From: a virus | Taxonomy: Duplodnaviria > Heunggongvirae > Uroviricota > Caudoviricetes | Strand: one strand, 5' to 3' | DNA: 16,579 nt | IMG/VR virus record: IMGVR_UViG_2721755721_000006 | Shown: positions 641-12,331 of the stretch, one piece after another | Layout: the number at the start of each line of letters is the position of its first letter | How positions within the stretch are numbered: position 1 is the stretch's first letter | Notes under the pieces: model-generated | Seen by the model: the letters and a program-made list of their open reading frames with translations, nothing else | What the model was told of the DNA's origin: nothing | Databases searched by the model: none | Position numbers and translations under genes: made by a program

Positions 641-2254
641 TTATTTATTGGTGAGTACTACGTTCCATGGCAGGAGTTCATCAACTCGGTTGGAAGGCCA
701 TTCCGGCAGTACGCTCAGGATATGGCGCAGATACGCTTCCGGATCGATACCGTTCAGACGGCAGGTGCCGATCAGCCCGTACAACAGTGCTCCACGCTCG
801 CCGCCGTGATCGCTGCCAAAGAACATAAAGTTTTTCTTTCCGAGACAGACTGCACGAAGCGCTCTTTCCGCAGCATTATTATCCGCCTCCGCCAGACCGT
901 CATCACTGTAATAACAGAGGGCATCCCACTGATTCAGTACATAGCTGAACGCTTCGCCCAGTCTGGATTTTTTCGACAGCGTACCATTCTTCTCCACCAT
1001 CCATTCATGCAGCGACGTCAGTAACACTTTGCTTCGCTGCTGCCTGACGGCAAGACGCTCTAACTCCGGTAATCCCCGTATTTCATCCTCGATGGCGTAC
1101 AGTTCACTGATTCGCTTCAGGGCTTCTTCTGCCGTCGCACTTTTGCTGCTGATGTATACATCGTGGATTTTTCGCCGGGCATGGGCCCAGCACGCAACTT
1201 CTGTCAGTGCACCACCTTCACGTTCTGCACTGAACAACCTGTCGTAACCTGTGAACGCATCCGCCTGCAGGATACCCCGGAAGGGGCGGAGGTGTTGCTC
1301 CGGGTGTTTCCCCTGCCGGTTCGGCGAGTACGCGAACCAGACCGCTGGAGGAGATGACGAACCCACATTGCGATCATCCCGGACATACGTCCAGATACGC
1401 CCTGTTTTCGCCTTTTTCTGACCCGGTGCCAGTACCTTTACCGGTGTGTCATCAGTGTGAACCTTGCGGGTGTTCATTACATAACGGTACAGGGCATCAT
1501 TCACCGGTGTCATTAACTGGCAGCACGCGTCAACCCAGTTGGAGAGTAAGGCCCGGCTCAGTTCGACACCCTGGCGGGCAAAGATTTCACTCTGACGATA
1601 CAGTGGCAGATGTTCGCAGTATTTTCCCGTTAACACGCGGGCAAGTAATCCGGGGCCCGCGATACCACGCTCTATCGGGCGGGACGGCGCCGGTGCTTCA
1701 ACAATACAGTCACATTTTGTACAGGCTTTTTTTACCCGTTCTGTGCGGATCACTTTCAGGGCACTGCTCACCAGTTCCAGCTGTTCAGCGCTGACTTCCC
1801 CCAGATAATCCAGCTCACCGCCACACTCCGGGCAACAGCTTTCTTCTGGCTCCAGGCGGTGTATTTCACGGGGAAGGTGTGCCGGTAACGGACGACGATG
1901 GCGCGACTGTCGCAACTGGCGGGGAACCTGAGGATCGTCTTCCCGCCCACTGTAACGATCGCTGTCCTGTTCACGTTGTTTCAGCAGAGCCTCAGCCAGT
2001 TCAACTTCACGACGCAGTTTTTCAGAACGGGTACCGAACAGCATCCGGCGCAGTTTTTCTATCTGAGCCCGCAGATGTTCTATTTCCCGTTCATCTTCTT
2101 CGATCTTTTCTTCGGCACGTGTCAGTGCAGAGCGCAGGAAGGCTTCCGTCTCTTCAACCAGACTCAGTTGCTGGTCTTTCTGACGGAGGGCTTCAGCCTG
2201 CTCAGAGAGCAACCTTTCCAGCTCTGCGATGCGAATGAGGTATTTCTGACTCAT
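641..2254 (-). CDS. tnpC: IS66-family transposase TnpC (537 aa)
   Basis: N-terminal coiled-coil/leucine-zipper region, a CPECGG…CTKCDC zinc-finger region and a long DDE-type core. Size and order match IS66 TnpC. Confidence 0.92.
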   Translation of the reverse strand: MSQKYLIRIAELERLLSEQAEALRQKDQQLSLVEETEAFLRSALTRAEEKIEEDEREIEHLRAQIEKLRRMLFGTRSEKLRREVELAEALLKQREQDSDRYSGREDDPQVPRQLRQSRHRRPLPAHLPREIHRLEPEESCCPECGGELDYLGEVSAEQLELVSSALKVIRTERVKKACTKCDCIVEAPAPSRPIERGIAGPGLLARVLTGKYCEHLPLYRQSEIFARQGVELSRALLSNWVDACCQLMTPVNDALYRYVMNTRKVHTDDTPVKVLAPGQKKAKTGRIWTYVRDDRNVGSSSPPAVWFAYSPNRQGKHPEQHLRPFRGILQADAFTGYDRLFSAEREGGALTEVACWAHARRKIHDVYISSKSATAEEALKRISELYAIEDEIRGLPELERLAVRQQRSKVLLTSLHEWMVEKNGTLSKKSRLGEAFSYVLNQWDALCYYSDDGLAEADNNAAERALRAVCLGKKNFMFFGSDHGGERGALLYGLIGTCRLNGIDPEAYLRHILSVLPEWPSNRVDELLPWNVVLTNK

Positions 2255-2284
2255 GACCGTTTTTATAATGCGGTCAGGAGTTTT

Positions 2285-2635
2285 TTACAACATTGTCAGT
2301 GAGTTACGGCTGGATGTTTTTGGCTGACGCCAGTCCAGCTTATCGAGGAGCATTGCCAGTTGCGAGCGGGTAATGGATACCTTGCCGTCACGTACCGCAG
2401 GCCAGATAAACTGGCCTTCCTCCAGGCGTTTGGTGAACAGGCACAGACCATCAGCATCAGCCCAAAGAATTTTGACGGTGTCACCCCGTCGGCCACGGAA
2501 GATAAACAGGTGACCGGAGAAGGGATTATCATTCAGCACATGTTGTACCTGTTCTCCCAGTCCGTTGAAGGATTTACGCATATCGGTAACGCCGGCAACG
2601 AGCCAGATACGGGTACCTGATGGGAGTGAGATCAT
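2285..2635 (-). CDS. tnpB: IS66-family accessory protein TnpB (orf2, 116 aa)
   Basis: MISLPSGTRIWLVAGVTDMRKSFNGL… is the hallmark IS66 Orf2 N-terminus. Its ATGA overlaps the tnpA stop. Confidence 0.92.
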   Translation of the reverse strand: MISLPSGTRIWLVAGVTDMRKSFNGLGEQVQHVLNDNPFSGHLFIFRGRRGDTVKILWADADGLCLFTKRLEEGQFIWPAVRDGKVSITRSQLAMLLDKLDWRQPKTSSRNSLTML

Positions 2636-3057
2636 CTTCCCCTCCCGGTCAGTTCACGGATCAACACTGTGAGCAGCTCTGGCGATGGATTTTCCAGCGT
2701 CATGTTACCGTGACGGAATTCCACCTTGCAGGAACTGGCACTGACTCTGGTCTGAGTGGAAGTGGATAAAGACGGCGCAATGGCCGCCACAGGTTCTTTC
2801 TGCTCATCCGGCGTTATTTCTACAGGTAATAATTCAACGCCAGTGTCAGAAGAGGTCGTTACCGGAAGACGCCGCGAAACACGCCCTTCGTTCTGCCAGA
2901 GCCTGAGCCATTTGAAAATAACATTATCATTGACGCCATTTTCACGTGCAATCTGTGCAACACAAGCTCCAGGTTGTGATGCCAGTTCCACCATACGAAG
3001 TTTGAATTCATTCGAATAGTTTTTACGAGGTTCTTTTCGCCAGTCCTGTAATTCCAT
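2632..3057 (-). CDS. tnpA: IS66-family accessory protein TnpA (orf1, 141 aa, HTH)
   Basis: First gene inside the tnpA-proximal terminal repeat. HTH segment QPGACVAQIARENGVNDN. ATG confirmed at 3055-3057. Confidence 0.9.
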   Translation of the reverse strand: MELQDWRKEPRKNYSNEFKLRMVELASQPGACVAQIARENGVNDNVIFKWLRLWQNEGRVSRRLPVTTSSDTGVELLPVEITPDEQKEPVAAIAPSLSTSTQTRVSASSCKVEFRHGNMTLENPSPELLTVLIRELTGRGR

Positions 3058-3118
3058 ACTTAGATGTCCGTCTATATCAGATGGGCGTCTAAGTTACCAA
3101 TTCTCGTCTGATGGCTAC

Positions 3119-3142
3119 ATACGGCGGTCAGTTTACGCTTAC
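3119..3142. repeat. IS66 terminal inverted repeat (tnpA-proximal end)
   Basis: Reverse complement is GTAAGCGTAAACTGACCGCCGTAT. It lies 85 bp upstream of the tnpA start. Confidence 0.6.
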
Positions 3143-3284
3143 GGTAATTCTGAATCAGCCACTCGACCTGTTCTTCAGTGCATTGGTCATGCTGGTACCA
3201 GTCATATTTGAATGCGTGAGAGCGCCGTCCGTGTCTGCTGGCAGGGTCGGCATCAGAATTGTGGTGTTTGGTATTGTGCGCCAT
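3143..3284 (-). pseudogene. 5' fragment of an unknown ORF, interrupted by the IS66 insertion
   Basis: ATG at 3284 opens MAHNTKHHNSDADPASRHGRRSHAFKYDWYQHDQCTEEQVEWLIQNYR. The frame then runs into the IS66 terminal repeat and stops at 3072 inside the IS. The upstream Shine-Dalgarno is weak. Confidence 0.2.
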
Positions 3285-3351
3285 CGGTTGTCTCTGCTGG
3301 CGCAGCAGGTGCCAGTTGTTCAGGCTGGCGTGTGGATTGTAAACCAGAATG

Positions 3352-3383
3352 CCAGGAAAAAACAAAACCCGCGAAGCGGGTTA
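3352..3383 (-). terminator. Rho-independent terminator downstream of the restriction endonuclease gene
   Basis: On the minus strand a GC-rich hairpin (AACCCGC / GCGGGTT, 3366-3382) is followed immediately by UUGUUUUUUCC. On the plus strand no U-tract follows, so it is unidirectional. It lies 70 bp past the R stop. Confidence 0.7.
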
Positions 3384-3454
3384 GTAAAAATGTACTGAAG
3401 TCAATGACGTGCCATCACAGTTAAAATATGACAGACTCTATTTACGTAGAGATG

Positions 3455-4333
3455 TCAGACTGCAAGATCCAAGGGAAGATCAGAAATATCCTTTAATCTT
3501 TTACCATTAACCATCACGGAAAGCATGTCAGCTGCATCGCTGAGCCCCAGTATTTCAACTGCTGATATAAGTTCATAAAGCGCAAAATGATACACGCAAT
3601 CTATATCACCAGTACCAAGAGCAATAGACGCCAGACGACTTGGAGTAGGCTCAGCAGTAACAACCATTACATGAGGGAGATTTCCCTTACGGTTGCGAAT
3701 AAGATTTAATGCCTCAGAACGAGCATTCTGGGCCCGGTCGCTTCTTATTGTCCATTTGCAGGAAATACTTGCGTGTAATATTGGTTTCCCACCATTCGAA
3801 CTCCTGAGAGCTGACATGCGGGTAACAGAATCATCCACCAGTAATTCAGGACTGTTGATAACTTGATCACATTCAGGTTCTCTTTCAACAATAATATCTG
3901 GTGAAATCGTATAATCACTCCCCAGTGCAGCAGCTAGCTGAGGATTACTTTTTGCAGCACTATCCAATGCTATAAGATGGGCATATTGTTCATATTTAGC
4001 TATCTCTAATCTGTTTCTACCAGAAACCTGATGTACATTCCATTTTCCAGGGCGTAAGTGGCTGAGTTTAAAAAAGGTTTTTTCTATAAACTCTGCGCAG
4101 ATACTCTCAAACTGATTACCAGATGTTTGCCCTGCAACACGTTCACCAATCGTTTCAGCCTGCAAGAAGCGAGCAATTTCTCTTGCTATAGCTTTACTGT
4201 TTTTGTTACTGCTATCTGCGTTACTAACAACTCCGGCAGTATTAATTGTGAGCGTATTCAGTAACAATTGGGCATGAAACTCCTTTCTGGCTTCAGCAAA
4301 ACCAACTATGCTGTCAACCAAATCTCCATTCAT
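3455..4333 (-). CDS. Type II restriction endonuclease, Cfr10I/NgoMIV-like PD-(D/E)xK family (292 aa from the ATG at 4333)
   Basis: Immediately downstream of the m5C methyltransferase gene. The sequence TGA-AGGAAATCCAGAA-ATG gives a Shine-Dalgarno 9 nt before the ATG at 4331-4333. The protein has PD (in TISPDIIVERE), then SCK 47 residues later, then E 14 residues after the K. The six-frame ORF extends to 4468 but that part overlaps the M gene 3' end. Confidence 0.72.
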   Translation of the reverse strand: MNGDLVDSIVGFAEARKEFHAQLLLNTLTINTAGVVSNADSSNKNSKAIAREIARFLQAETIGERVAGQTSGNQFESICAEFIEKTFFKLSHLRPGKWNVHQVSGRNRLEIAKYEQYAHLIALDSAAKSNPQLAAALGSDYTISPDIIVEREPECDQVINSPELLVDDSVTRMSALRSSNGGKPILHASISCKWTIRSDRAQNARSEALNLIRNRKGNLPHVMVVTAEPTPSRLASIALGTGDIDCVYHFALYELISAVEILGLSDAADMLSVMVNGKRLKDISDLPLDLAV

Positions 4334-4346
4334 TTCTGGATTTCCT

Positions 4347-5471
4347 TCAGGCTGCTTGACTATTCTTACTGATGTTATTCTTATACCGTCCCTGCAAAAC
4401 TCCATACACATATTGTGCGATTTTTGCCGCAAATAGCGGTGGAACAGCATTCCCGATCTGCTTTGCAATCTCAGTTTTTGAACCGGTAAAAATGAAATTA
4501 TCAGGAAAAGACATTAATCTCGCTGCCTCACGATGAGTTATTGGCCGATCCTCTTCCGGATGTAAATATCGCCCTTTCTCCGGTTTGAAAAACTCAGTAC
4601 GAATCGTTACTGAAGGTCTGTCCCACCACAGACGTCCAAACAAATCGGTCCCTCCAGATTTCTTTTTTAGCCAGCACGCCGGGGTTATATCAGGTCTTTT
4701 TTTCTGTAAATCGAAACGGTTACCTCCTGGTGGAACCGCTTTATATCGCTCCAGAGAAACAGGTGTGGGATTACGCCCAAAATGTAAGTTCAGCGGAGGA
4801 AGTTCATTACGAATATCAGTTCCAACAGGAGCAGGTAAGTCACCAATTGCATCACGCGTACAGACCCATTCAGGCAAAGCGACATCCTTATCAGGGGAAC
4901 GATGCGTTGGTGCTGGCGGGAACGCCGGAATACTATGCACATCGAAGAGTTCTCGTTTGATACCGATTGCTATCGTTCGTTTTCTTGTCTGAGGTACTCC
5001 ATAGTCAGCAGTATTCAACACCATTGGATTAAGCAGAATAAAGCCCATGGATTTCGCTCTAAACGTAATGTCCGCAAACTCATCGCTTATCAGCAATCCG
5101 GGGACATTTTCCATGACGAACATACAAGCCCTTGAACGCTCAATGACATCCATATAAGGCTCCCACAATGCTCTTCGGTGATCACCATAACGATTCTTAT
5201 TCAATAAACTGAATCCCTGACACGGGGGGCCACCTATGACCACATCAGCCTCAGGAACAGTATTGCTGGATGCCCACTCCTCAATATTTGCCTGAACTCC
5301 ATGCAAACCAAAATTGGCATTGTAGGTATTTATAGCTGCAGCATTATTATCAATAGCAAGGATACTTTCAAAGTAGTCAGACATCTCTCCATGAAGAAAA
5401 CCATAAGATAATCCACCTGCCCCACAAAAGAGGTCTATCACTCTGAATTTATTTAATTCTTTCATCCGCAT
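4347..5471 (-). CDS. DNA (cytosine-5)-methyltransferase (374 aa)
   Basis: Canonical m5C methyltransferase motifs in order: FCGAGG (I), GGPPCQGFS (IV, catalytic Cys), ENV (VI), QTRKR (VIII), GNAVPP (X). There is no N-terminal HTH extension. Confidence 0.93.
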   Translation of the reverse strand: MRMKELNKFRVIDLFCGAGGLSYGFLHGEMSDYFESILAIDNNAAAINTYNANFGLHGVQANIEEWASSNTVPEADVVIGGPPCQGFSLLNKNRYGDHRRALWEPYMDVIERSRACMFVMENVPGLLISDEFADITFRAKSMGFILLNPMVLNTADYGVPQTRKRTIAIGIKRELFDVHSIPAFPPAPTHRSPDKDVALPEWVCTRDAIGDLPAPVGTDIRNELPPLNLHFGRNPTPVSLERYKAVPPGGNRFDLQKKRPDITPACWLKKKSGGTDLFGRLWWDRPSVTIRTEFFKPEKGRYLHPEEDRPITHREAARLMSFPDNFIFTGSKTEIAKQIGNAVPPLFAAKIAQYVYGVLQGRYKNNISKNSQAA

Positions 5472-5554
5472 CCATATGCCTCAGATTAATGTTGAGCGTC
5501 TTACAGGACGCGTAATGTTAACTGGGGCTTTCTCTATCTGCCTTTTGGTGTTCA

Positions 5555-5579
5555 TGCCTGAGGCAGACAGCCTCAGGCA
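5555..5579. repeat. Perfect 9-bp inverted repeat (TGCCTGAGG-N7-CCTCAGGCA) between queH-like and the methyltransferase gene
   Basis: Stem 5555-5563 pairs with 5571-5579 around the loop CAGACAG. No U-tract follows on either strand, so it is not a canonical terminator. It sits about 85-100 bp upstream of the M start. Confidence 0.4.
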
Positions 5580-5649
5580 CCCGCAGCAATTCTACTTAAC
5601 TCACGTCACCTCGCCAATATGAAATCAATCAGAAAGGTGATCCATAAAA

Positions 5650-6336
5650 TCACTCCTTCTCTTCTTTTCCGTAGTGGAGTTGGCCAATTTTGATAAGAGG
5701 GCGTCCCTGAGATTTGCGGTGTAGATTGGTATCGCGCAGAGAATACACACAGCCACAATATTCCTGCTGATAGAATTTTTCGCGCTTGCTGATTTCAATC
5801 ATACGGGACGAGCCGCCCTGCTTGCGCCAGTTATAATCCCAGTACACCATACCCGGATAATGCGCAACAGCTCGCCGCCCACACTCGTTAACCTGCTGCA
5901 TATTTTTCCAGCGTGAAATGCCCAGTGAACTACTGATCACACTGAAACCATTTTCAGCAGCGTACAACGCTGTCCGCTCAAAACGCATGTCAAAACACAT
6001 GGTACAACGGATCCCCCTCTCAGGCTCCCATTCCATTCCTTTGGCACGTTCAAACCAGTTGTCGGTGTCGTAATCAGCATCGATAAACGGCACGCCGTGT
6101 TGTTCAGCAAAGCGAATATTTTCATCCTTACGAATTAAATACTCTTTCTGAGGATGAATGTTCGGGTTGTAGAAAAAGATGGTGTAGTCGATTCCCGAGG
6201 CCTGAAGCGCCTCCATCACTTCACCGGAACATGGAGCACAGCAAGAGTGCAGTAGTAGTTTGTTTGCCCCGTTTGGAAGCTCCAATTTAGGCCGTTTGAA
6301 ATCAGCAATAGTCATAAATATTTTTATTGGGGTCAT
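5650..6336 (-). CDS. queH: QueH-like protein (DUF208; putative epoxyqueuosine reductase family)
   Basis: Shows the DUF208/QueH signatures [24 protein letters not shown] and QEYCGCVY. An alternative ATG start at 6315 would shorten the N-terminus. No obvious Shine-Dalgarno at either start. Confidence 0.75.
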
Positions 6337-6489
6337 GAAAATAGCACAGAGTGTAGCATCAGAGCAGGGCTATCGGGAATATATGTCTAAATCTGGTAAT
6401 ATCTGGTTTTGACGCAAAGCGGACAACCACGCTGGCTCTACCCTGCGCCATGAAAATGTCAATTCACATCTGAACTAATGCTCTTTAAT

Positions 6490-6915
6490 CTAGTAACGTC
6501 TAAAATACCTAACATTTCCTTGATAAAATGCCAGTACACGCTGCATAGCTTCGCTCTTCCGGCACTCGCGACAGATTATGTTCATACGCCTGTCGTAGCG
6601 GCGTATTTCTCCGTCGGGTAATGTCCAGATAAGGCCCGGATCAACCACAACAGGTTTCTTCACCTTTGCACTCGAGAGTTTTTTGCGGGCGTTTTGCCAG
6701 TCCTTACGAGCCTGTTCTGACGGGAACAACCCATAGCCAGAGTGATATACATCACCACTGGCAACCAGCTCTCTGGCAAGAACGCTCATCAGATATCTTG
6801 TCGCACCTGTCTTGGCTTCCAGTTGCCGTAACGTCTCGCGCCCACTCCGGCGTACTAGCTCAACAACCTGCCCTTTAATTTTTTCCCGCTCTTCTTGTGT
6901 AAATACTTTTTCCAT
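6490..6915 (-). CDS. Hypothetical phage protein (141 aa) with a putative N-terminal winged-helix segment and a basic C-terminus
   Basis: ATG at 6913-6915 is preceded by GAAGG 5 nt upstream. It abuts the stop of the upstream ORF and is co-oriented with the replication genes. The six-frame ORF begins at a TTG at 6930. Confidence 0.55.
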   Translation of the reverse strand: MEKVFTQEEREKIKGQVVELVRRSGRETLRQLEAKTGATRYLMSVLARELVASGDVYHSGYGLFPSEQARKDWQNARKKLSSAKVKKPVVVDPGLIWTLPDGEIRRYDRRMNIICRECRKSEAMQRVLAFYQGNVRYFRRY

Positions 6916-6930
6916 AAGCGCCTTCGGCAA

Positions 6931-7701
6931 TCACTTTTCCGATACAACACGGCGGGAAGAATCAGTAATCTGTCGAACAATATCCCGGTGCTTGTTCAGC
7001 TCCCGCAGCGCGGCGCAGACTCGCTCCCACTTCTGAACATCACTTTTCGCCCTGCGCAGCGCCAGGTTTGCCCTGCGAAGGGACGGAAAAATCAGCTCAT
7101 CTGCTTGCGTTTCGGTAAACGATGGCAACGGCTGCACAATGTCCGCCACAGTTTCTGTTTTAATTTCTTCCTGTGTTGCGGCTTCCCGGACTGGTAACGC
7201 AGCACCTGCTGGCTGAGGAAAGGCCTTACCATCACTTTCCGTTACCAGCGCGGCTTTCGGCTCTGCTGGTAAATTATCGCCCGGCATGCAGTAACGAAAT
7301 TTACCGTTCTGATTAACGCGTGCCAGCCGCCCCGTTGCGGTTACCACCGCCAGCGTGGAAGCAACCTTGCGAGTACTGACACCGAACTTACCCGCCAGTT
7401 CCTCACACGTTTTAGCCCCATCCTGACCGATAAACTCAATCATCATGTCTGCGGTAACTTTTTGTTCGACCTCCCTGGTCAGCATATCCTGTGCTTCAGA
7501 TTTTACTGGCCGCTCCTCGGTTACCCGGGATTCACCTTCGCCAGCCAGAAACCAGGTGTGACCAGTTTTATCAACGACGCCATTTCTTTTGAGTTCCCAC
7601 ACCTCGTTGACAGCCTCTTCACGAGTGATTCCAAGGCGAGCTGCCACCACATGTGAAGAGGCTTTTTTCAGTGCTTTCAGTGCGTCAGATACGGTTTCCA
7701 T
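6931..7701 (-). CDS. Hypothetical phage protein (256 aa) with two winged-helix-like repeats
   Basis: Strong Shine-Dalgarno GGAGGAAATTTTA before the ATG at 7701. Two HTH-like segments (VVAARLGITREEAV… and …CEELAGKFGVSTRKVAST…). Sits just downstream of the DnaC-like gene, as lambdoid post-replication genes do. Confidence 0.6.
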   Translation of the reverse strand: METVSDALKALKKASSHVVAARLGITREEAVNEVWELKRNGVVDKTGHTWFLAGEGESRVTEERPVKSEAQDMLTREVEQKVTADMMIEFIGQDGAKTCEELAGKFGVSTRKVASTLAVVTATGRLARVNQNGKFRYCMPGDNLPAEPKAALVTESDGKAFPQPAGAALPVREAATQEEIKTETVADIVQPLPSFTETQADELIFPSLRRANLALRRAKSDVQKWERVCAALRELNKHRDIVRQITDSSRRVVSEK

Positions 7702-7722
7702 TAAAATTTCCTCCGGACAAAA

Positions 7723-8469
7723 TTACTTCACAACCCTCATATTGCTGACATTTGGACGCCAGCTATCCCAGTTAAACGTCACCCATCGACCACCGTTCAT
7801 GGTCATGCGGTCCATAATCCTCTCACCAAGAAGCGTACTCATTGCGGCATGATTCAGGTTTGTTAACATCCCGACACTGCACAGTGATGCTGTCCGGCGA
7901 TCAATTATCTGGTGCAATACCACCTGCTCGTTTTTCGTCTCCCGCTGAACGCCTATTTCATCCAGGACCAGCAAATCAACCCCGCAAAGCTCCTGTAAAA
8001 ATTTTTCCCCGGATTTGCCGTTGTCGTAGCTGTCATGCAACACGCTCATGACGTCAGACACGGTGACGATAATCACGCTGCGCCCCTTCACCATCAGCCG
8101 GTTGCCCATCGCCGCTGCAAGGTGATTTTTCCCGGTGCCGGTTTTACCGCTGAACACAAAATTCGTGCACCCGGTCATCAGTTCGTCAGCTATGGATTTG
8201 GCCTGGCTCAGCGCGTATTTTTGCCCGTCGTTCTGCACCTGATAATTTGCAAACGAGCATTTGCTGTGCAGAGGCTGGATGCCCGAACGATTCAGGATTT
8301 TTTCCACCCGCAACTGGCGATTCTGGCGGTTAATCTCCTCGCTGCGTTTTCGTCCTTCAGCAAGTTGCCATTCCCGCCACTCCTCCACCGTCCGGTACGG
8401 TGGAACCGACCCCTGTGGTGCAAGTCTGCGAATACGTTCAAGAACCCCAACTGCCGCAATGTTTTTCAT
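7723..8469 (-). CDS. DnaC/IstB-like AAA+ helicase loader (phage replication protein, P/YdaV-position)
   Basis: Walker A (GKTGTGKNHLAAA) and Walker B (LLVLDEIG) motifs. 248 aa. Starts 7 bp after the O-like gene stop. Confidence 0.9.
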   Translation of the reverse strand: MKNIAAVGVLERIRRLAPQGSVPPYRTVEEWREWQLAEGRKRSEEINRQNRQLRVEKILNRSGIQPLHSKCSFANYQVQNDGQKYALSQAKSIADELMTGCTNFVFSGKTGTGKNHLAAAMGNRLMVKGRSVIIVTVSDVMSVLHDSYDNGKSGEKFLQELCGVDLLVLDEIGVQRETKNEQVVLHQIIDRRTASLCSVGMLTNLNHAAMSTLLGERIMDRMTMNGGRWVTFNWDSWRPNVSNMRVVK

Positions 8470-8475
8470 GACACG

Positions 8476-9438
8476 TCACCCCCTGAATCCCGGCGGTATT
8501 TCAGTGTCCGGTTCAGAAATGTGATTCACGCAACGCTGCGCGGGCGAACGCCCCAGGCGGATAACCAGTTCATCCCATTTTTCCCGGAGTTTTGCCGGAC
8601 TCATGATGTTTTTTACCCAGAACGAATCCCGCTGGAGACGCCCAAACATTTCACAAATTTGTCTGTGAGTTCTGCCATCCAGCATCCGCATTGTCCGCAC
8701 GTCATTGGCCCATGCAGTCCAGTTGGGTTCTTTCGGTCTCGTGATCTCGCCATCATCGCTGGCCGCCTGCTCGTAAAGACTCACGATTCGTCCCCAGATC
8801 CACTGTGCGCACACCAAATCTTCCTGACTTCCCCACTGGCGTTTTTTCGCACTGAACACAACCGCGTCAGGGTGTCGGGTTAAAAAATTCTGTTCAGCCG
8901 TCTGCGGGTCCGGTTGCGAAGCGTCCGGACAAGAAGATCTTTTATCTGACGGATCAGGTTTTAATACTGACGGATCGGGGTCAATCATCGCCCCCCTAAT
9001 CGGCAGTTTGTTATCAACAGTTGATCCATCAAAATTTGACGGGTCAACCGTTGAGGGGGCAATATTTGACGGGTCAACTGTTAACGGGTCATTTTTTGCC
9101 GGGCTAATTTTTCTTTTCGGTTTATATGACTCACGCGCCGCCGCAGCAGCTGCTTCGAGTTTTTCCACATTAAGCCGATAGATATTGCTTACATTACGCC
9201 CACCGACCTTACGCTCTTCCTTCGTCAGCCAGCCCTCTTTCGCCAGTTCTGCAATAGCCGATTTCACTGTGGATTCACTTCTTGCACCGATCTGACGCCG
9301 GATAGTTTCAATGGCAGGCCATGACACGCCCTCGTCATTGCTGTAGTCTGCAAGACGGGCCATAACCGCCACCCTGGATAAGATCATGCCGGTGAAGGCG
9401 CACCCTTCCCAGACAAGACCATGAAGCTTGCTGCTCAT
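8476..9438 (-). CDS. Phage replication initiator (lambda O-like; YdaU-position), with internal iteron repeats
   Basis: N-terminal wHTH region, a repetitive linker (…TVDPSN… three times, DPDPS, KPDPSD) that corresponds to DNA iterons, and a C-terminal domain. ATG at 9436-9438; the six-frame ORF starts at a GTG at 9453. Confidence 0.8.
   Translation of the reverse strand: MSSKLHGLVWEGCAFTGMILSRVAVMARLADYSNDEGVSWPAIETIRRQIGARSESTVKSAIAELAKEGWLTKEERKVGGRNVSNIYRLNVEKLEAAAAAARESYKPKRKISPAKNDPLTVDPSNIAPSTVDPSNFDGSTVDNKLPIRGAMIDPDPSVLKPDPSDKRSSCPDASQPDPQTAEQNFLTRHPDAVVFSAKKRQWGSQEDLVCAQWIWGRIVSLYEQAASDDGEITRPKEPNWTAWANDVRTMRMLDGRTHRQICEMFGRLQRDSFWVKNIMSPAKLREKWDELVIRLGRSPAQRCVNHISEPDTEIPPGFRG
8945..9130. 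repeat. Iteron cluster plus adjacent AT-rich stretch (putative prophage replication origin inside the O-like gene)
   Basis: Five copies of T(G/A)ACGG(A/G)TC at 8947, 8968, 9037, 9067 and 9082. Two ~23-bp near-identical repeats at 9031-9053 and 9061-9083 (AAAATTTGACGGGTCAACCGTTG versus AATATTTGACGGGTCAACTGTTA). An AT-rich run follows at 9091-9130. Confidence 0.55.
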
Positions 9439-9460
9439 AAAACCCCCGAACACCGTGCTT

Positions 9461-9886
9461 TTAGTGCATCACCACAGCATTCCCTGCCGGGCCGCCGCGA
9501 TTCATCTGGTCATACAAAACAACCGCTGACGCAACAAAATCATCGACATCCTTCACCAGCCGATCCCTCCGTTCGACGATCTCACGGTAATATTCAGAAC
9601 TGTGGCTGCGCATACGGGCCACCAGCAGAGGCGGCATTGCCTTTTCGATCGCCGGTAACAGAGCCTGAATTTTTTCAACAGCATCAGGGGTGTCTTTATC
9701 CAGCCAACGGAAAATTTTCTGTGTATTACGGGCCAGGGCTTCCGGATGGCTGTCGTCGTACAGTTCAGGGAACGTCATCCCCAGTTCGAAATAAGTCCGG
9801 GCTATTTCAGCTGCAGGAACTTTCTCACCATCAGGGTATGCCCAGGCATTCATCGCCATGCGGATGTGCTCATGTTTGATTTTCAT
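9461..9886 (-). CDS. YdaT-like protein (CII-position regulator of Rac/CP-933P-type prophages; 141 aa)
   Basis: Second gene of the rightward-operon analogue, directly after the Cro-like gene (its ATG at 9884-9886 overlaps the upstream stop at 9870). Size matches what I recall for YdaT (~140 aa). Assignment rests on position and size, not a verified alignment. Confidence 0.6.
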   Translation of the reverse strand: MKIKHEHIRMAMNAWAYPDGEKVPAAEIARTYFELGMTFPELYDDSHPEALARNTQKIFRWLDKDTPDAVEKIQALLPAIEKAMPPLLVARMRSHSSEYYREIVERRDRLVKDVDDFVASAVVLYDQMNRGGPAGNAVVMH

Positions 9887-10193
9887 GAATCATTTGCCTC
9901 TTGATGCTTCGGGTATGATCGTTTTCGTCATTTGGTTGCTTCATCGACATATTCTGCGAATAACATGACGAGCGTCGTAAGTATGTCCAATCAACATCAG
10001 GACGAAGTTCTTCACACAGGACACCACCTTTTGTTGCTCGTTCAATCGCAGGACATCTCTCAGCAGGCAACTGACGTACACCTTTGATCCATTGATTTAC
10101 GCTTGGAGGAGATACACCTAAAAGCCTAGCCATTGCTGATTGCCCACCGACAACAGCACAAGCTCGTTTGAATGAATAGTTATCTTTTTTCAT
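9870..10193 (-). CDS. Cro/YdaS-like HTH regulator (107 aa from the ATG at 10193)
   Basis: HTH segment QSAMARLLGVSPPSVNQWIKGVRQLP. GGAG lies 8 nt before the ATG. It is the first gene after the divergent PR-like promoter. The six-frame ORF begins at a GTG at 10214, which coincides with the predicted transcription start. Confidence 0.72.
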   Translation of the reverse strand: MKKDNYSFKRACAVVGGQSAMARLLGVSPPSVNQWIKGVRQLPAERCPAIERATKGGVLCEELRPDVDWTYLRRSSCYSQNMSMKQPNDENDHTRSIKRQMIHENQT

Positions 10194-10220
10194 CGAATGA
10201 ACTCCAAAAAACACGCAACA

Positions 10221-10250
10221 ATATTAGGCTTAGCCTAATACAATTGTCAA
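10221..10250 (-). promoter_or_regulatory. PR-like sigma70 promoter driving the Cro/YdaS-like operon
   Basis: Minus strand reads TTGACA (plus 10245-10250), an 18-nt spacer, then TAATAT (plus 10221-10226). The spacer contains the operator dyad ATTAGGCTAAGCCTAAT. Confidence 0.6.
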
Positions 10251-10288
10251 TAGGCTATGCCTAACACATCGAGAGTAGGGATTGCCTA
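10223..10288. promoter_or_regulatory. Three operator-like dyads (OR analogue) in the divergent intergenic region
   Basis: ATTAGGCTTAGCCTAAT (10223-10239), TAGGCTATGCCTA (10251-10263) and TAGGGATTGCCTA (10276-10288). Centres are about 25 bp apart. Consensus TAGGC-N3-GCCTA. Confidence 0.55.
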
Positions 10289-10317
10289 ACGCGATGCGCA
10301 TAGGAGACTATTAAGCA

Positions 10318-10794
10318 ATGCTTAGTGGTAAAGACTTAGGCCGAGCGATAGAGCAGGCCATTAACAAAAAAATTGCATCAGGAGCCGTCAAATCAAAGGC
10401 GGAAATCGCACGTCATTTCAAAGTCCAACCACCATCAATCCATGACTGGATTAAGAAAGGTTCGATAAGTAAAGACAAACTTCCAGAACTATGGCGTTTC
10501 TTTTCTGATGTGGTTGGTCCAGAGCATTGGGGGCTTAACGAATACCCCATACCAACCCCATCCACTTCAGATACAAAAAGTGAACTTTTAGACATAAACA
10601 GCCTTTATCAAGCCGCCTCTGATGAAAAAAGAGCAATTGTGGCTTTCCTCTTATCTGGAAATGCTACGGAGCCTAGTTGGGTTGATCATGACGTTCGCGC
10701 CTACATTGCCGCAATGGAAATGAAGGTAGCTAACTATCTGAAAAATCAAGAATCAAAACGGAAAAGCCAGAACATCACCAAGACAGGAACTTAA
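10318..10794 (+). CDS. Prophage repressor, RacR-like (158 aa, HTH, no recognisable LexA-type autocleavage domain)
   Basis: Divergent from the Cro-like gene. TAGGAGA lies 10 nt before the ATG at 10318. HTH segment KSKAEIARHFKVQPPSIHDWIKKGS. Flanked on both sides by the same operator dyads. Confidence 0.72.
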   Translation: MLSGKDLGRAIEQAINKKIASGAVKSKAEIARHFKVQPPSIHDWIKKGSISKDKLPELWRFFSDVVGPEHWGLNEYPIPTPSTSDTKSELLDINSLYQAASDEKRAIVAFLLSGNATEPSWVDHDVRAYIAAMEMKVANYLKNQESKRKSQNITKTGT

Positions 10795-10808
10795 ACTTAT
10801 ATGGTCCG

Positions 10809-10830
10809 ACGGGAAATTCCTAGTTCCCGT
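10809..10830 (+). terminator. Weak hairpin downstream of the repressor gene (candidate terminator)
   Basis: ACGGGAA / TTCCCGT stem with an 8-nt loop, 13 bp after the stop. The following sequence TAGTT is only weakly U-rich. Confidence 0.25.
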
Positions 10831-10887
10831 TAGTTAACTCCTACTACCTCTCCCACAAACCATCACCTATTAGGTCGCGCCCAAATT

Positions 10888-10931
10888 ATTAGGCATAGCC
10901 TATTGACAAGTAATTAGGCATTTCCTATAGT
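10888..10931 (+). promoter_or_regulatory. PL-like sigma70 promoter with overlapping operator dyads (OL analogue)
   Basis: TTGACA (10903-10908), a 17-nt spacer, then TATAGT (10926-10931). Operator dyads TAGGCATAGCCTA (10890-10902) and TAGGCATTTCCTA (10915-10927) have the same core as the OR sites. Confidence 0.6.
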
Positions 10932-11116
10932 TTTCCCATACCAACCCATCCCGTCCCACACAATACAGGGCAATACCTCGAGTTACCAGGCAGTGGTCAG
11001 GGGTTAAGTAGCCAGCCCGAGGCGTAAGAACATGACGGCAGGGTTCAACTTTAATAACTATGCAGCAGGTTTTTGTTCCGCTACCCCGGCGTTAAGGGGA
11101 AACAGAGGGTTTCTCA

Positions 11117-11763: not shown

Positions 11764-12331
11764 TAGCTAACCAACGAAGCTAAGGTTGGTAATTAAGGAG
11801 TTCTCCACGGGTGAGGTGGAGTGCGTGCGCCGGACACGGGTGAGCATCCGGCACTGACAGTTTACTGAAAGGATATTTCCCTGAAAAGTCAGACCATAAC
11901 GCGAAAGCGCACGGCGAGGTAGCTGGTTCATAGATAGCCTGTCGTTAAATTTTCGTCGACCGTGCGCTTCCGGTTGTGGCAATCCGCGAAATGGCGCGGC
12001 GGTAAGTATGGCGGGGTTATTCCTTCCCCCGTTGAGGACACCGGGTTGTCAGGTTGACCATACGCTTAAGTGACAACCCCGCTGCAACGCCCTCTGTTAT
12101 CAATTTTCTGGTGACGTTTGGCGGTATCAGTTTTACTCCGTGACTGCTCTGCCGCCCTTTTTAAAGTGAATTTTGTGATGCGGTGAATGCGGCTGAGCGC
12201 ACGCGGAACAGTTAAAACCAAAAACAGTGTTATGGGTGGATTCTCTGTATCCGGCGTTAATTGTTAACTGGTTAACGTCACCTGGAGGCACCAGGCACTG
12301 CATCACAAAATTCATTGTTGAGGACGCGATA

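Follow-up and report, generated by a model that had tools for sequence, protein, structure and literature searches.

The window, by which we mean the whole 16,579-nt stretch of DNA analyzed here (IMG/VR virus record IMGVR_UViG_2721755721_000006), is part of an Escherichia coli Rac/Qin-type lambdoid prophage. Its queH gene sits in the early-right operon, between the replication genes and the hokD/DUF968/RusA/Q block, and is followed in this copy by a type II restriction-modification (R-M) pair made up of a methyltransferase gene (M) and an endonuclease gene (R). The features of the region, all of them on the minus strand, are as follows (coordinates are window positions).

641-3142, minus strand: IS66-family element (Pfam and NCBIfam IS66 matches), comprising tnpA (2632-3057), tnpB (2285-2635) and transposase (641-2254), all minus
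3366-3382, minus strand: intrinsic terminator-like hairpin and T-run ending the M-R unit (terminator scan)
3384-5477, minus strand: R-M cassette of 2094 bp, in place of 287 bp with the hokD ORF
3455-4333 (frame open to 4468), minus strand: NgoMIV-family type II endonuclease (Pfam NgoMIV_restric, E = 1e-126)
4347-5471 (RefSeq start 5465), minus strand: C5 cytosine DNA methyltransferase (Pfam DNA_methylase, E = 4e-54)
5478-5649, minus strand: retained hokD/sok leader (the spacer), 92-98% identical to the queH-hokD intergenic DNA of loci without R-M genes
5650-6315, minus strand: queH CDS, 221 aa from the conserved Met; frame open up to an ATG at 6336
6350-6379, minus strand: candidate queH promoter, with extended -10-like TGCTACACT (6358 to 6350) and weak -35 TTCCCG (6379 to 6374)
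6490-6915 (or to 6930), minus strand: DUF977/Ren-like gene (LygF), directly upstream of queH (Pfam DUF977, E = 9e-28; RefSeq)
6931-7701, minus strand: DUF1627 gene
7723-8469, minus strand: DnaC/IstB-like ATPase
8476-9453, minus strand: O-like HTH replication gene
9461-9886, minus strand: ydaT
9870-10214, minus strand: Cro/YdaS-like gene

The LygF gene was also matched by the PHROG for Ren-like exclusion protein. The plus strand of the window carries racR, the DicF RNA, a DUF1482 gene, a large exonuclease gene and the integrase gene. A complete E. coli chromosome holds a locus that is 99.7% identical over 3142-11102, where the prophage adjoins yccA/tusE, and the RefSeq gene names given there agree with those found here. 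The end of the IS66 element at about 3142 cuts short a small gene that intact relatives have ahead of DUF968/RusA/Q; this border was placed where homology with the intact prophage L001 begins (3142), and the CDS map of L001 gave the intact gene order. The sequence-only reading of this DNA had described a queH-like gene embedded in mobile cargo and oriented with the R-M pair, and this description holds: prophage replication genes, DUF1627 and DUF977 lie upstream, the R-M pair lies downstream, and all of the flanking genes share the minus strand.

ARAGORN identified no tRNA genes in the window, so queH has no link to phage tRNA genes here, and no que, tgt or folE genes occur in the window or in the related prophage. 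Clustering with que genes is frequent in the QueH family but does not define it. The rickettsial queH described in PMC5615194 is likewise unlinked to other que genes.

Identity of the queH product

The minus-strand ORF at 5650-6336 comprises 228 codons. Its proposed assignment to the QueH (DUF208) family was confirmed by profile search, in which Pfam QueH (PF02677) matched end to end (profile positions 1-174 of 175) with an E-value of 1.1e-65 and 221.5 bits against a cut-off of 23.5, a match far beyond chance. The best PDB match was the QueH of Thermotoga maritima (7lc5; E = 7.8e-22; residues 27-203 against 4-178), and identity to this crystallized enzyme is 30-33%. A fold search was carried out with an AlphaFold model of the protein (pLDDT 74, pTM 0.76). 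The top five PDB matches were all T. maritima QueH entries (target-normalised TM 0.74-0.77), and other PP-loop-type enzymes ranked far below them. The protein is thus predicted to adopt the QueH fold, with the adenine-nucleotide-alpha-hydrolase-like core of 7lc5. NCBIfam returned no model match for the protein, so the family assignment rests on the Pfam, PDB and fold evidence. PHROGs holds the family as phrog_3217 (E = 2e-138) under the label "unknown function"; the profile starts at residue 41, past the CCAPC motif.

The three cysteine motifs that had been described as intact are all present in the translation, with CCAPC at residues 32-36 of the long ORF, RCTMCF (an RCxxCF motif) at 110-115 and YCGC at 193-196. 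In an alignment with QueH proteins from Acinetobacter, Neisseria, Streptococcus, Bacillus, Erwinia, Providencia, Photorhabdus and T. maritima, residues C25, C26, C104, C107, C187 and C189 (numbered from Met-8) are invariant, and the residues of His-x-Cys-Cys-Ala-Pro, Arg-Cys-x-x-Cys and Tyr-Cys-Gly-Cys show no variation. At the fifth place of the first motif, the window protein and every other aligned QueH have Cys, with the exception of the Thermotoga enzyme, which has Asp13; CCAPC is therefore the common form.

The true start of the gene is likely the second ATG, at 6315, giving a protein of 221 aa. RefSeq, which already names the gene QueH (WP_000150294.1, identical locus), starts it there, and the corresponding Met is the first residue of plasmid copies and of an Erwinia-named homologue (P0004). 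The start at 6315 is also favored because homology with the plasmid copies stops a few to some tens of bases upstream.

The window protein has no added domain. Its identity to QueH proteins named from Erwinia, Providencia, Proteus, Photorhabdus, Gibbsiella, Rahnella, Ewingella, Sodalis and others is 80-86%; a large number of these are encoded on Mb-scale contigs and are presumably chromosomal. Given this level of identity to Enterobacterales QueH and the lack of an extra domain, the gene has the appearance of an enterobacterial housekeeping gene whose capture was recent. Identity to an Acinetobacter plasmid QueH is 74-77%.

Transcription signals of queH

A strict consensus scan called no sigma-70 promoter upstream of queH, and a strict scan found no terminator after it on its own strand. 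There is also no terminator-like site on that strand between queH and the replication genes. Without strict signals around the gene, read-through from the early-right promoter after induction would be expected. The prophage and Klebsiella plasmid copies nevertheless have in common a block that runs from TTCCCGATAGC to CTGATGCTACACT and includes TGCTACACT, while their DNA further upstream is unrelated, and in other queH homologues a -10-like hexamer is found about as far from the gene. This conservation suggests that queH has an autonomous promoter. Rfam searches, run on the whole window at the gathering threshold and on 3000-7000 at E <= 1, turned up sok and DicF only; the DNA upstream of queH gave neither a preQ1 riboswitch nor any other RNA element.

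The restriction-modification cassette

The cassette downstream of queH encodes a type II R-M system, in which the C5 methyltransferase and the NgoMIV-family endonuclease genes are arranged in tandem on one strand, 13 nt apart. The methyltransferase was also matched by TIGR00675 (dcm) and PADLOC MTase_II, and the endonuclease, a CDS of 879 nt in RefSeq, by PADLOC REase_II (E = 1e-125). The borders of the cassette were apparent from comparison with the ST131 prophage L002, which is 97.9% identical over window 5478-9894 and 84% identical over 3142-3383. Homology is lost between 3383 and 3384 and between 5477 and 5478 of the window, opposite L002 positions 5540 and 5828. The hok ORF itself is deleted and the M/R pair stands in its stead, at the exact place of hokD in most relatives. 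The hairpin that ends the M-R unit lies in the backbone block 3142-3383, whose L002 counterpart lies downstream of hokD.

A simple scan found no intrinsic-terminator-like site in 5472-5649, which agrees with the earlier observation that no terminator precedes the M gene; however, this interval is hokD/sok leader and has a promoter-like site of its own (TTGGCG-17-TAGAAT, 5617 to 5589). Rfam also places sok here (RF01794, 5582 to 5402), at 61 bits, the gathering score being 59. With its leader kept and the hok ORF lost, the 178-bp spacer reads as a hok/sok remnant and not as a functional toxin-antitoxin module. Because the M gene follows the promoter-bearing hokD leader, the M/R pair probably uses the hokD transcription signals, and co-transcription with queH would not be needed.

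In order to determine how often queH and the cassette occur together, 5426 complete E. coli genomes were searched for queH DNA (at least 80% coverage) and for the junctions (a probe spanning each junction, covered at 80% or more). The queH gene is present in 985 genomes, the queH-M junction in only 57 and the queH-hokD junction in 741; about 94% of the queH-bearing genomes are without the R-M cassette. A similar picture came from IMG/VR, where hokD lies beside queH in 55 and M/R in 20 of 75 informative contigs, the tally having been made on the best 80 of at least 165 loci, all encoding the identical E. coli QueH. The cassette was found in 60 genomes, in 59 of them at 99% identity or more. It adjoins queH in 57 and occurs without queH in three, where it lies in lambdoid prophages that have DUF551 or a beta/sce7726 pair at the place of queH. 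The near-identity of these copies points to one recent acquisition, which would account for most of them still adjoining queH. Close homologues elsewhere are flanked by LysR and acetyltransferase genes, by chemoreceptor genes and, once, by a housekeeping dcm-vsr pair. By and large, queH homologues do not co-occur with R-M genes.

The sequence-only reading had asked whether the linkage of queH, M and R recurs, and it implied that the three genes might form a unit. Neither is borne out, since the queH-hokD junction is far the commoner arrangement, the cassette occurs without queH, and plasmid and other-contig homologues have unrelated neighbors. Nothing points to joint action of queH and the R-M pair; their adjacency is incidental and follows from replacement of the hokD ORF by the cassette. 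The alternative offered in the same reading, that queH is a coincidental moron, is favored instead by the cassette borders at the hokD ORF, by the minority status of the queH-M junction and by the mobility of queH as a single gene.

Distribution and selection

Carriers of queH include ST131, O104:H4, several O157:H7 lines, O111, O103 and REL606. Cobalamin-dependent queG is present in all 5426 complete E. coli genomes, and REL606 carries both genes. Among the 1047 genomes with any queH match, 985 keep at least 80% of the gene. The E. coli matches number 1076 in total, and 705 E. coli records are at least 99% identical, with other lineages at 91-98%. The earlier description of QueH as normally chromosomal is correct insofar as 1014 of these matches are on chromosomes, but every full-length chromosomal copy that we inspected resides in a lambdoid prophage. 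The remaining 62 matches are on plasmids and include decayed remnants; a second, divergent queH lineage on E. coli plasmids has decayed to pseudogene fragments.

Among phages, the isolated temperate phage HannyBb keeps queH at the same position, where it is annotated as hypothetical. HannyBb is the one convincing isolate in the phage collection, the other matches being unannotated fecal contigs or dubious records. In IMG/VR, queH occurs on at least 165 contigs. It is also found on Klebsiella plasmids (99 records, mostly conjugative; 87-92% identity among the copies listed) and on Acinetobacter plasmids. Homology between the prophage and Klebsiella plasmid loci is restricted to window 5643-6380, that is, to the gene plus some tens of upstream bases, which indicates that queH moves as a single gene. 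On Klebsiella plasmids it lies among defense genes (CBASS-type JAB, dGTPase and ThsB). On an Acinetobacter plasmid it adjoins genes whose annotations read methionine synthase, MesX and MTHFR C-terminal domain protein, which we take to be a cobalamin-independent methionine route.

The mobile copies, which always occur alongside chromosomal queG, are under strong purifying selection, with pN/pS at about 0.05. In all pairwise comparisons of prophage and plasmid copies, pN/pS is 0.04-0.09, also in pairs that differ at 60-80% of synonymous sites and so approach saturation there, and selection on the plasmid copies is as strong as elsewhere. The gene is also kept intact in defective prophages, such as Qin of REL606 and the IS66-disrupted element of the window.

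Discussion

We consider it likely that the intact queH is a single-gene moron whose product converts epoxyqueuosine (oQ) to queuosine (Q) in tRNA without cobalamin, and that the M/R pair is an independent cassette. By homology with its family, the protein would bind a [4Fe-4S] cluster and a neighboring iron through its seven conserved cysteines (CCAPC, RCxxC and YCGC), and would reduce epoxyqueuosine-34 to queuosine in tRNA-Asp, -Asn, -His and -Tyr in a cobalamin-independent manner. The tRNA activity of the prophage enzyme in E. coli is a prediction from what is described for this family. In E. coli the gene is accessory cargo, occupying a slot whose contents vary among Rac/Qin-type lambdoid prophages. 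A short conserved promoter of its own probably drives transcription, supplemented by early-right read-through after induction. The M/R pair would be a selfish or defense cassette that, in a single lineage of the prophage, took the place of the hokD ORF behind the promoter and leader of hokD, and it would have nothing to do with QueH chemistry.

The prophage enzyme would do the same work as QueG, which is universal and chromosomal. E. coli lacks de novo cobalamin synthesis and the QueG step needs this cofactor, so the simplest benefit would be the formation of Q under corrinoid limitation, with carriers able to complete queuosine synthesis when corrinoids are scarce. The methionine-route neighbors on the Acinetobacter plasmid provide a small supporting hint. 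The benefit of cobalamin independence to carriers is conjectural, since we know of no growth phenotype for loss of the oQ-to-Q step. In one study, deletion of queG left growth unchanged (PMC11841063).

Several known systems can be compared with this locus. QueH is described as a cobalamin-independent alternative to QueG (PMC5615194; PMC6461909), and the window protein shares the cysteine motifs, profile and predicted fold of that family (DUF208/PF02677/IPR003828; T. maritima 7lc5, 7lc7 and 9deu). It departs from typical QueH in that it is prophage-borne, has close relatives on conjugative plasmids and occurs in a host that already has QueG; other QueH genes may be clustered with que genes, whereas this one is not. 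QueG performs the same reaction on the same tRNAs, and the E. coli QueG step is reported as cobalamin dependent (PMC4646009, citing Frey et al. 1988), but its fold and cofactor are unrelated to those of QueH. In E. coli, queG is a chromosomal gene of every genome (5426/5426), whereas queH is accessory (985/5426). Like the morons and addiction modules of lambdoid phages, queH and the M/R pair lie in the variable cargo region that follows the replication genes. Such cargo regions are in general rich in addiction and defense genes. In contrast to hokD/sok or type II R-M cargo, queH encodes a housekeeping-type enzyme and not a toxin or defense function.

The same chemistry could instead serve the phage. 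In that case, queH would be an auxiliary gene of the delayed-early phase whose expression comes largely from pR once the prophage is induced, and its product would adjust the host's tRNA-Asp, -Asn, -His and -Tyr to suit phage translation or to counter toxins of the host or of competitors that target tRNA, in place of adding to the fitness of the lysogen. The position of queH in the early-right operon, the lack of a same-strand terminator-like site after the replication genes and of a strong promoter call, and the retention of queH at the same place in HannyBb are consistent with this explanation. However, the short upstream block with its -10-like element accompanies queH onto plasmids, where there is no phage operon, purifying selection is equally strong on the plasmid copies, and the gene is intact in prophages that are defective. 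We therefore regard a benefit to the phage as unlikely.

A further idea, which we judge to be quite improbable, is that mobile QueH is kept for a role in genetic conflict rather than for housekeeping. It draws on the placement of the gene among addiction and defense genes, with hokD or R-M in prophages and JAB, dGTPase and ThsB on plasmids. An oQ/Q switch of host tRNAs might aid translation of the element or blunt anticodon toxins or nucleases that act at the queuosine position; a conflict role through a 7-deazaguanine substrate other than tRNA is less likely. PADLOC gave no match for QueH.

It is more doubtful still that queH is a neutral hitch-hiker, a captured chromosomal gene that has no current function and is carried by a successful prophage module. 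Full redundancy with queG, which every genome contains, the apparent lack of a phenotype for the oQ-to-Q step and the decay of the divergent plasmid lineage to pseudogene fragments would all fit such a gene, but pN/pS stays at 0.04-0.09 at up to about 0.7-0.8 synonymous differences per site, 985 of 1047 genomes retain at least 80% of the gene, and every ligand residue is intact.

Phage 7-deazaguanine DNA-modification systems are also phage-borne and belong to the same 7-deazaguanine/queuosine metabolic neighborhood, but they are defined by DpdA together with FolE, QueD, QueE and QueC, none of which the window element has. [quoted passage not shown] The suggestion that queH has a non-tRNA role on DNA beside the R-M system loses its footing with the lack of any DNA-transglycosylase or preQ0-pathway gene. 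Hutinet et al. (2019) found no QueA, QueG or QueH in the viruses they analyzed, and no Q-specific enzymes in the DNA-modifying ones (PMC6884629). Blocking of restriction by phage 7-deazaguanine DNA modifications is established (PMC6884629), no canonical terminator separates queH, M and R on their common strand, and the cassette adjoins queH in nearly all of its copies. Even so, we find it scarcely credible that QueH acts with the R-M pair or on DNA by helping to make or process a 7-deazaguanine base of phage or host DNA, for example so as to modulate restriction at GC-rich NgoMIV-type sites: the adjacency mirrors a single recent insertion, with three recombinants that lost queH, the cassette is missing from most queH-bearing genomes and has its own C5 methyltransferase for self-protection, and QueH closely resembles non-phage Enterobacterales copies with no domain added.

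Conclusions

Cooperation between queH and the R-M pair, as it had been framed, has no significance, as cassette replacement brought the two together by accident. The gene is already known as QueH in RefSeq, and the kind of finding is not new. The wide spread of cobalamin-independent QueH on phages and plasmids in E. coli and Klebsiella nevertheless seems little discussed. Our literature search found no paper on prophage-borne QueH; the matches to "DUF208 + prophage" were false, being to DUF2080 and DUF2081. Roughly a fifth of complete E. coli genomes carry, on prophages, an intact and strongly constrained gene for a predicted cobalamin-independent epoxyqueuosine reductase, and close copies are found on conjugative plasmids of Klebsiella. 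Strains with queH would be predicted to differ from others in having Q rather than oQ in their tRNA when grown without B12. Such a difference may be relevant when tRNA modification or translation is compared between K-12 and B or pathogenic strains.

The hokD/sok leader and the R-M cassette

The type II restriction-modification (R-M) cassette occupies the position that belongs to a small toxin gene in most relatives of this prophage, as the hokD open reading frame has been swapped for a segment (window positions 3384-5477) holding the C5 DNA methyltransferase (M) and NgoMIV-family endonuclease (R) genes. The features located around the cassette and in the rest of the window are as follows.

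Features of the window outside queH and the R-M genes
1-654, orientation opposite to the IS66 element at 641-3142: second IS66-type tnpA
641-3142, minus strand: IS66-family element comprising tnpA, tnpB and transposase, with its end at ~3142
5478-5649, minus strand: conserved hokD/sok leader (Rfam RF01794), the "spacer" separating queH from the M gene
12106-12157, plus strand: DicF small RNA (Rfam RF00039, 76.7 bits)

The match to the sok family RF01794 scored 61 bits and spans 5402-5582 on the minus strand. With the cassette in place of the hokD open reading frame, the R-M system is now positioned downstream of the leader, and predicted promoter, of a type I toxin-antitoxin locus.

DicF lies within the dicB-type immunity region and, as expected, is in keeping with a Qin/Rac-like prophage. 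The IS66-family element cuts off, at its ~3142 end, a small gene that intact relatives carry ahead of DUF968/RusA/Q. The part of the prophage that follows the R-M pair is probably defective.

Annotation and genomic contexts of queH

The PHROGs family matching QueH (5650-6336) is phrog_3217, which is labelled "unknown function". Because its profile begins at residue 41 of the window protein, past the CCAPC motif, the comparison suggests that the QueH start is placed too late in many phage annotations.

Prophage copies of queH are intact, unlike a divergent second lineage on E. coli plasmids, which was found only as frameshifted or truncated fragments on pZ1323PEC0010-2 (L095, 4164-4285) and similar plasmids (matches H108-H110 and H231-H240); the carrier inspected among these is a RepB-type plasmid. 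On Klebsiella plasmids, queH is surrounded by recognised defence genes (L004, 1-11284; L006, 11705-12409): one plasmid has a CBASS-type JAB gene adjoining a ThiF (E1-like) gene, together with a NACHT protein, a dGTPase and a PDC-S45-like protease, and the other has ThsB (TIR). On Acinetobacter lwoffii plasmid pmZS (L011, 1-5045), the annotations of the genes flanking queH are methionine synthase, MesX oxygenase and MTHFR C-terminal-domain protein; queH and these methionine genes represent two functions, both expected to be cobalamin-independent.

A second queH next to a C5 DNA methyltransferase gene, evidently by coincidence, was found on the P0008 contig (L100, 3893-6663), where a gene encoding a QueH 85% identical to that of the window is divergent to, and adjoins, the housekeeping dcm-vsr pair. 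The order yedA / vsr / dcm / ... / HD-protein resembles the dcm surroundings of E. coli K-12.

Variation in the cargo slot

An extra segment of ~370 bp separates queH from the hokD leader in the REL606 Qin prophage (L003, 5623-5994) and phage HannyBb (L005, 5694-6065), and is missing from the window and from the ST131 prophage. The E. coli A34 prophage (L008, 6571-8206) carries the R-M cassette without queH, and its slot upstream of the cassette holds genes for a "beta family protein" and a "sce7726 family protein", which fits the position of queH being a general cargo hotspot.
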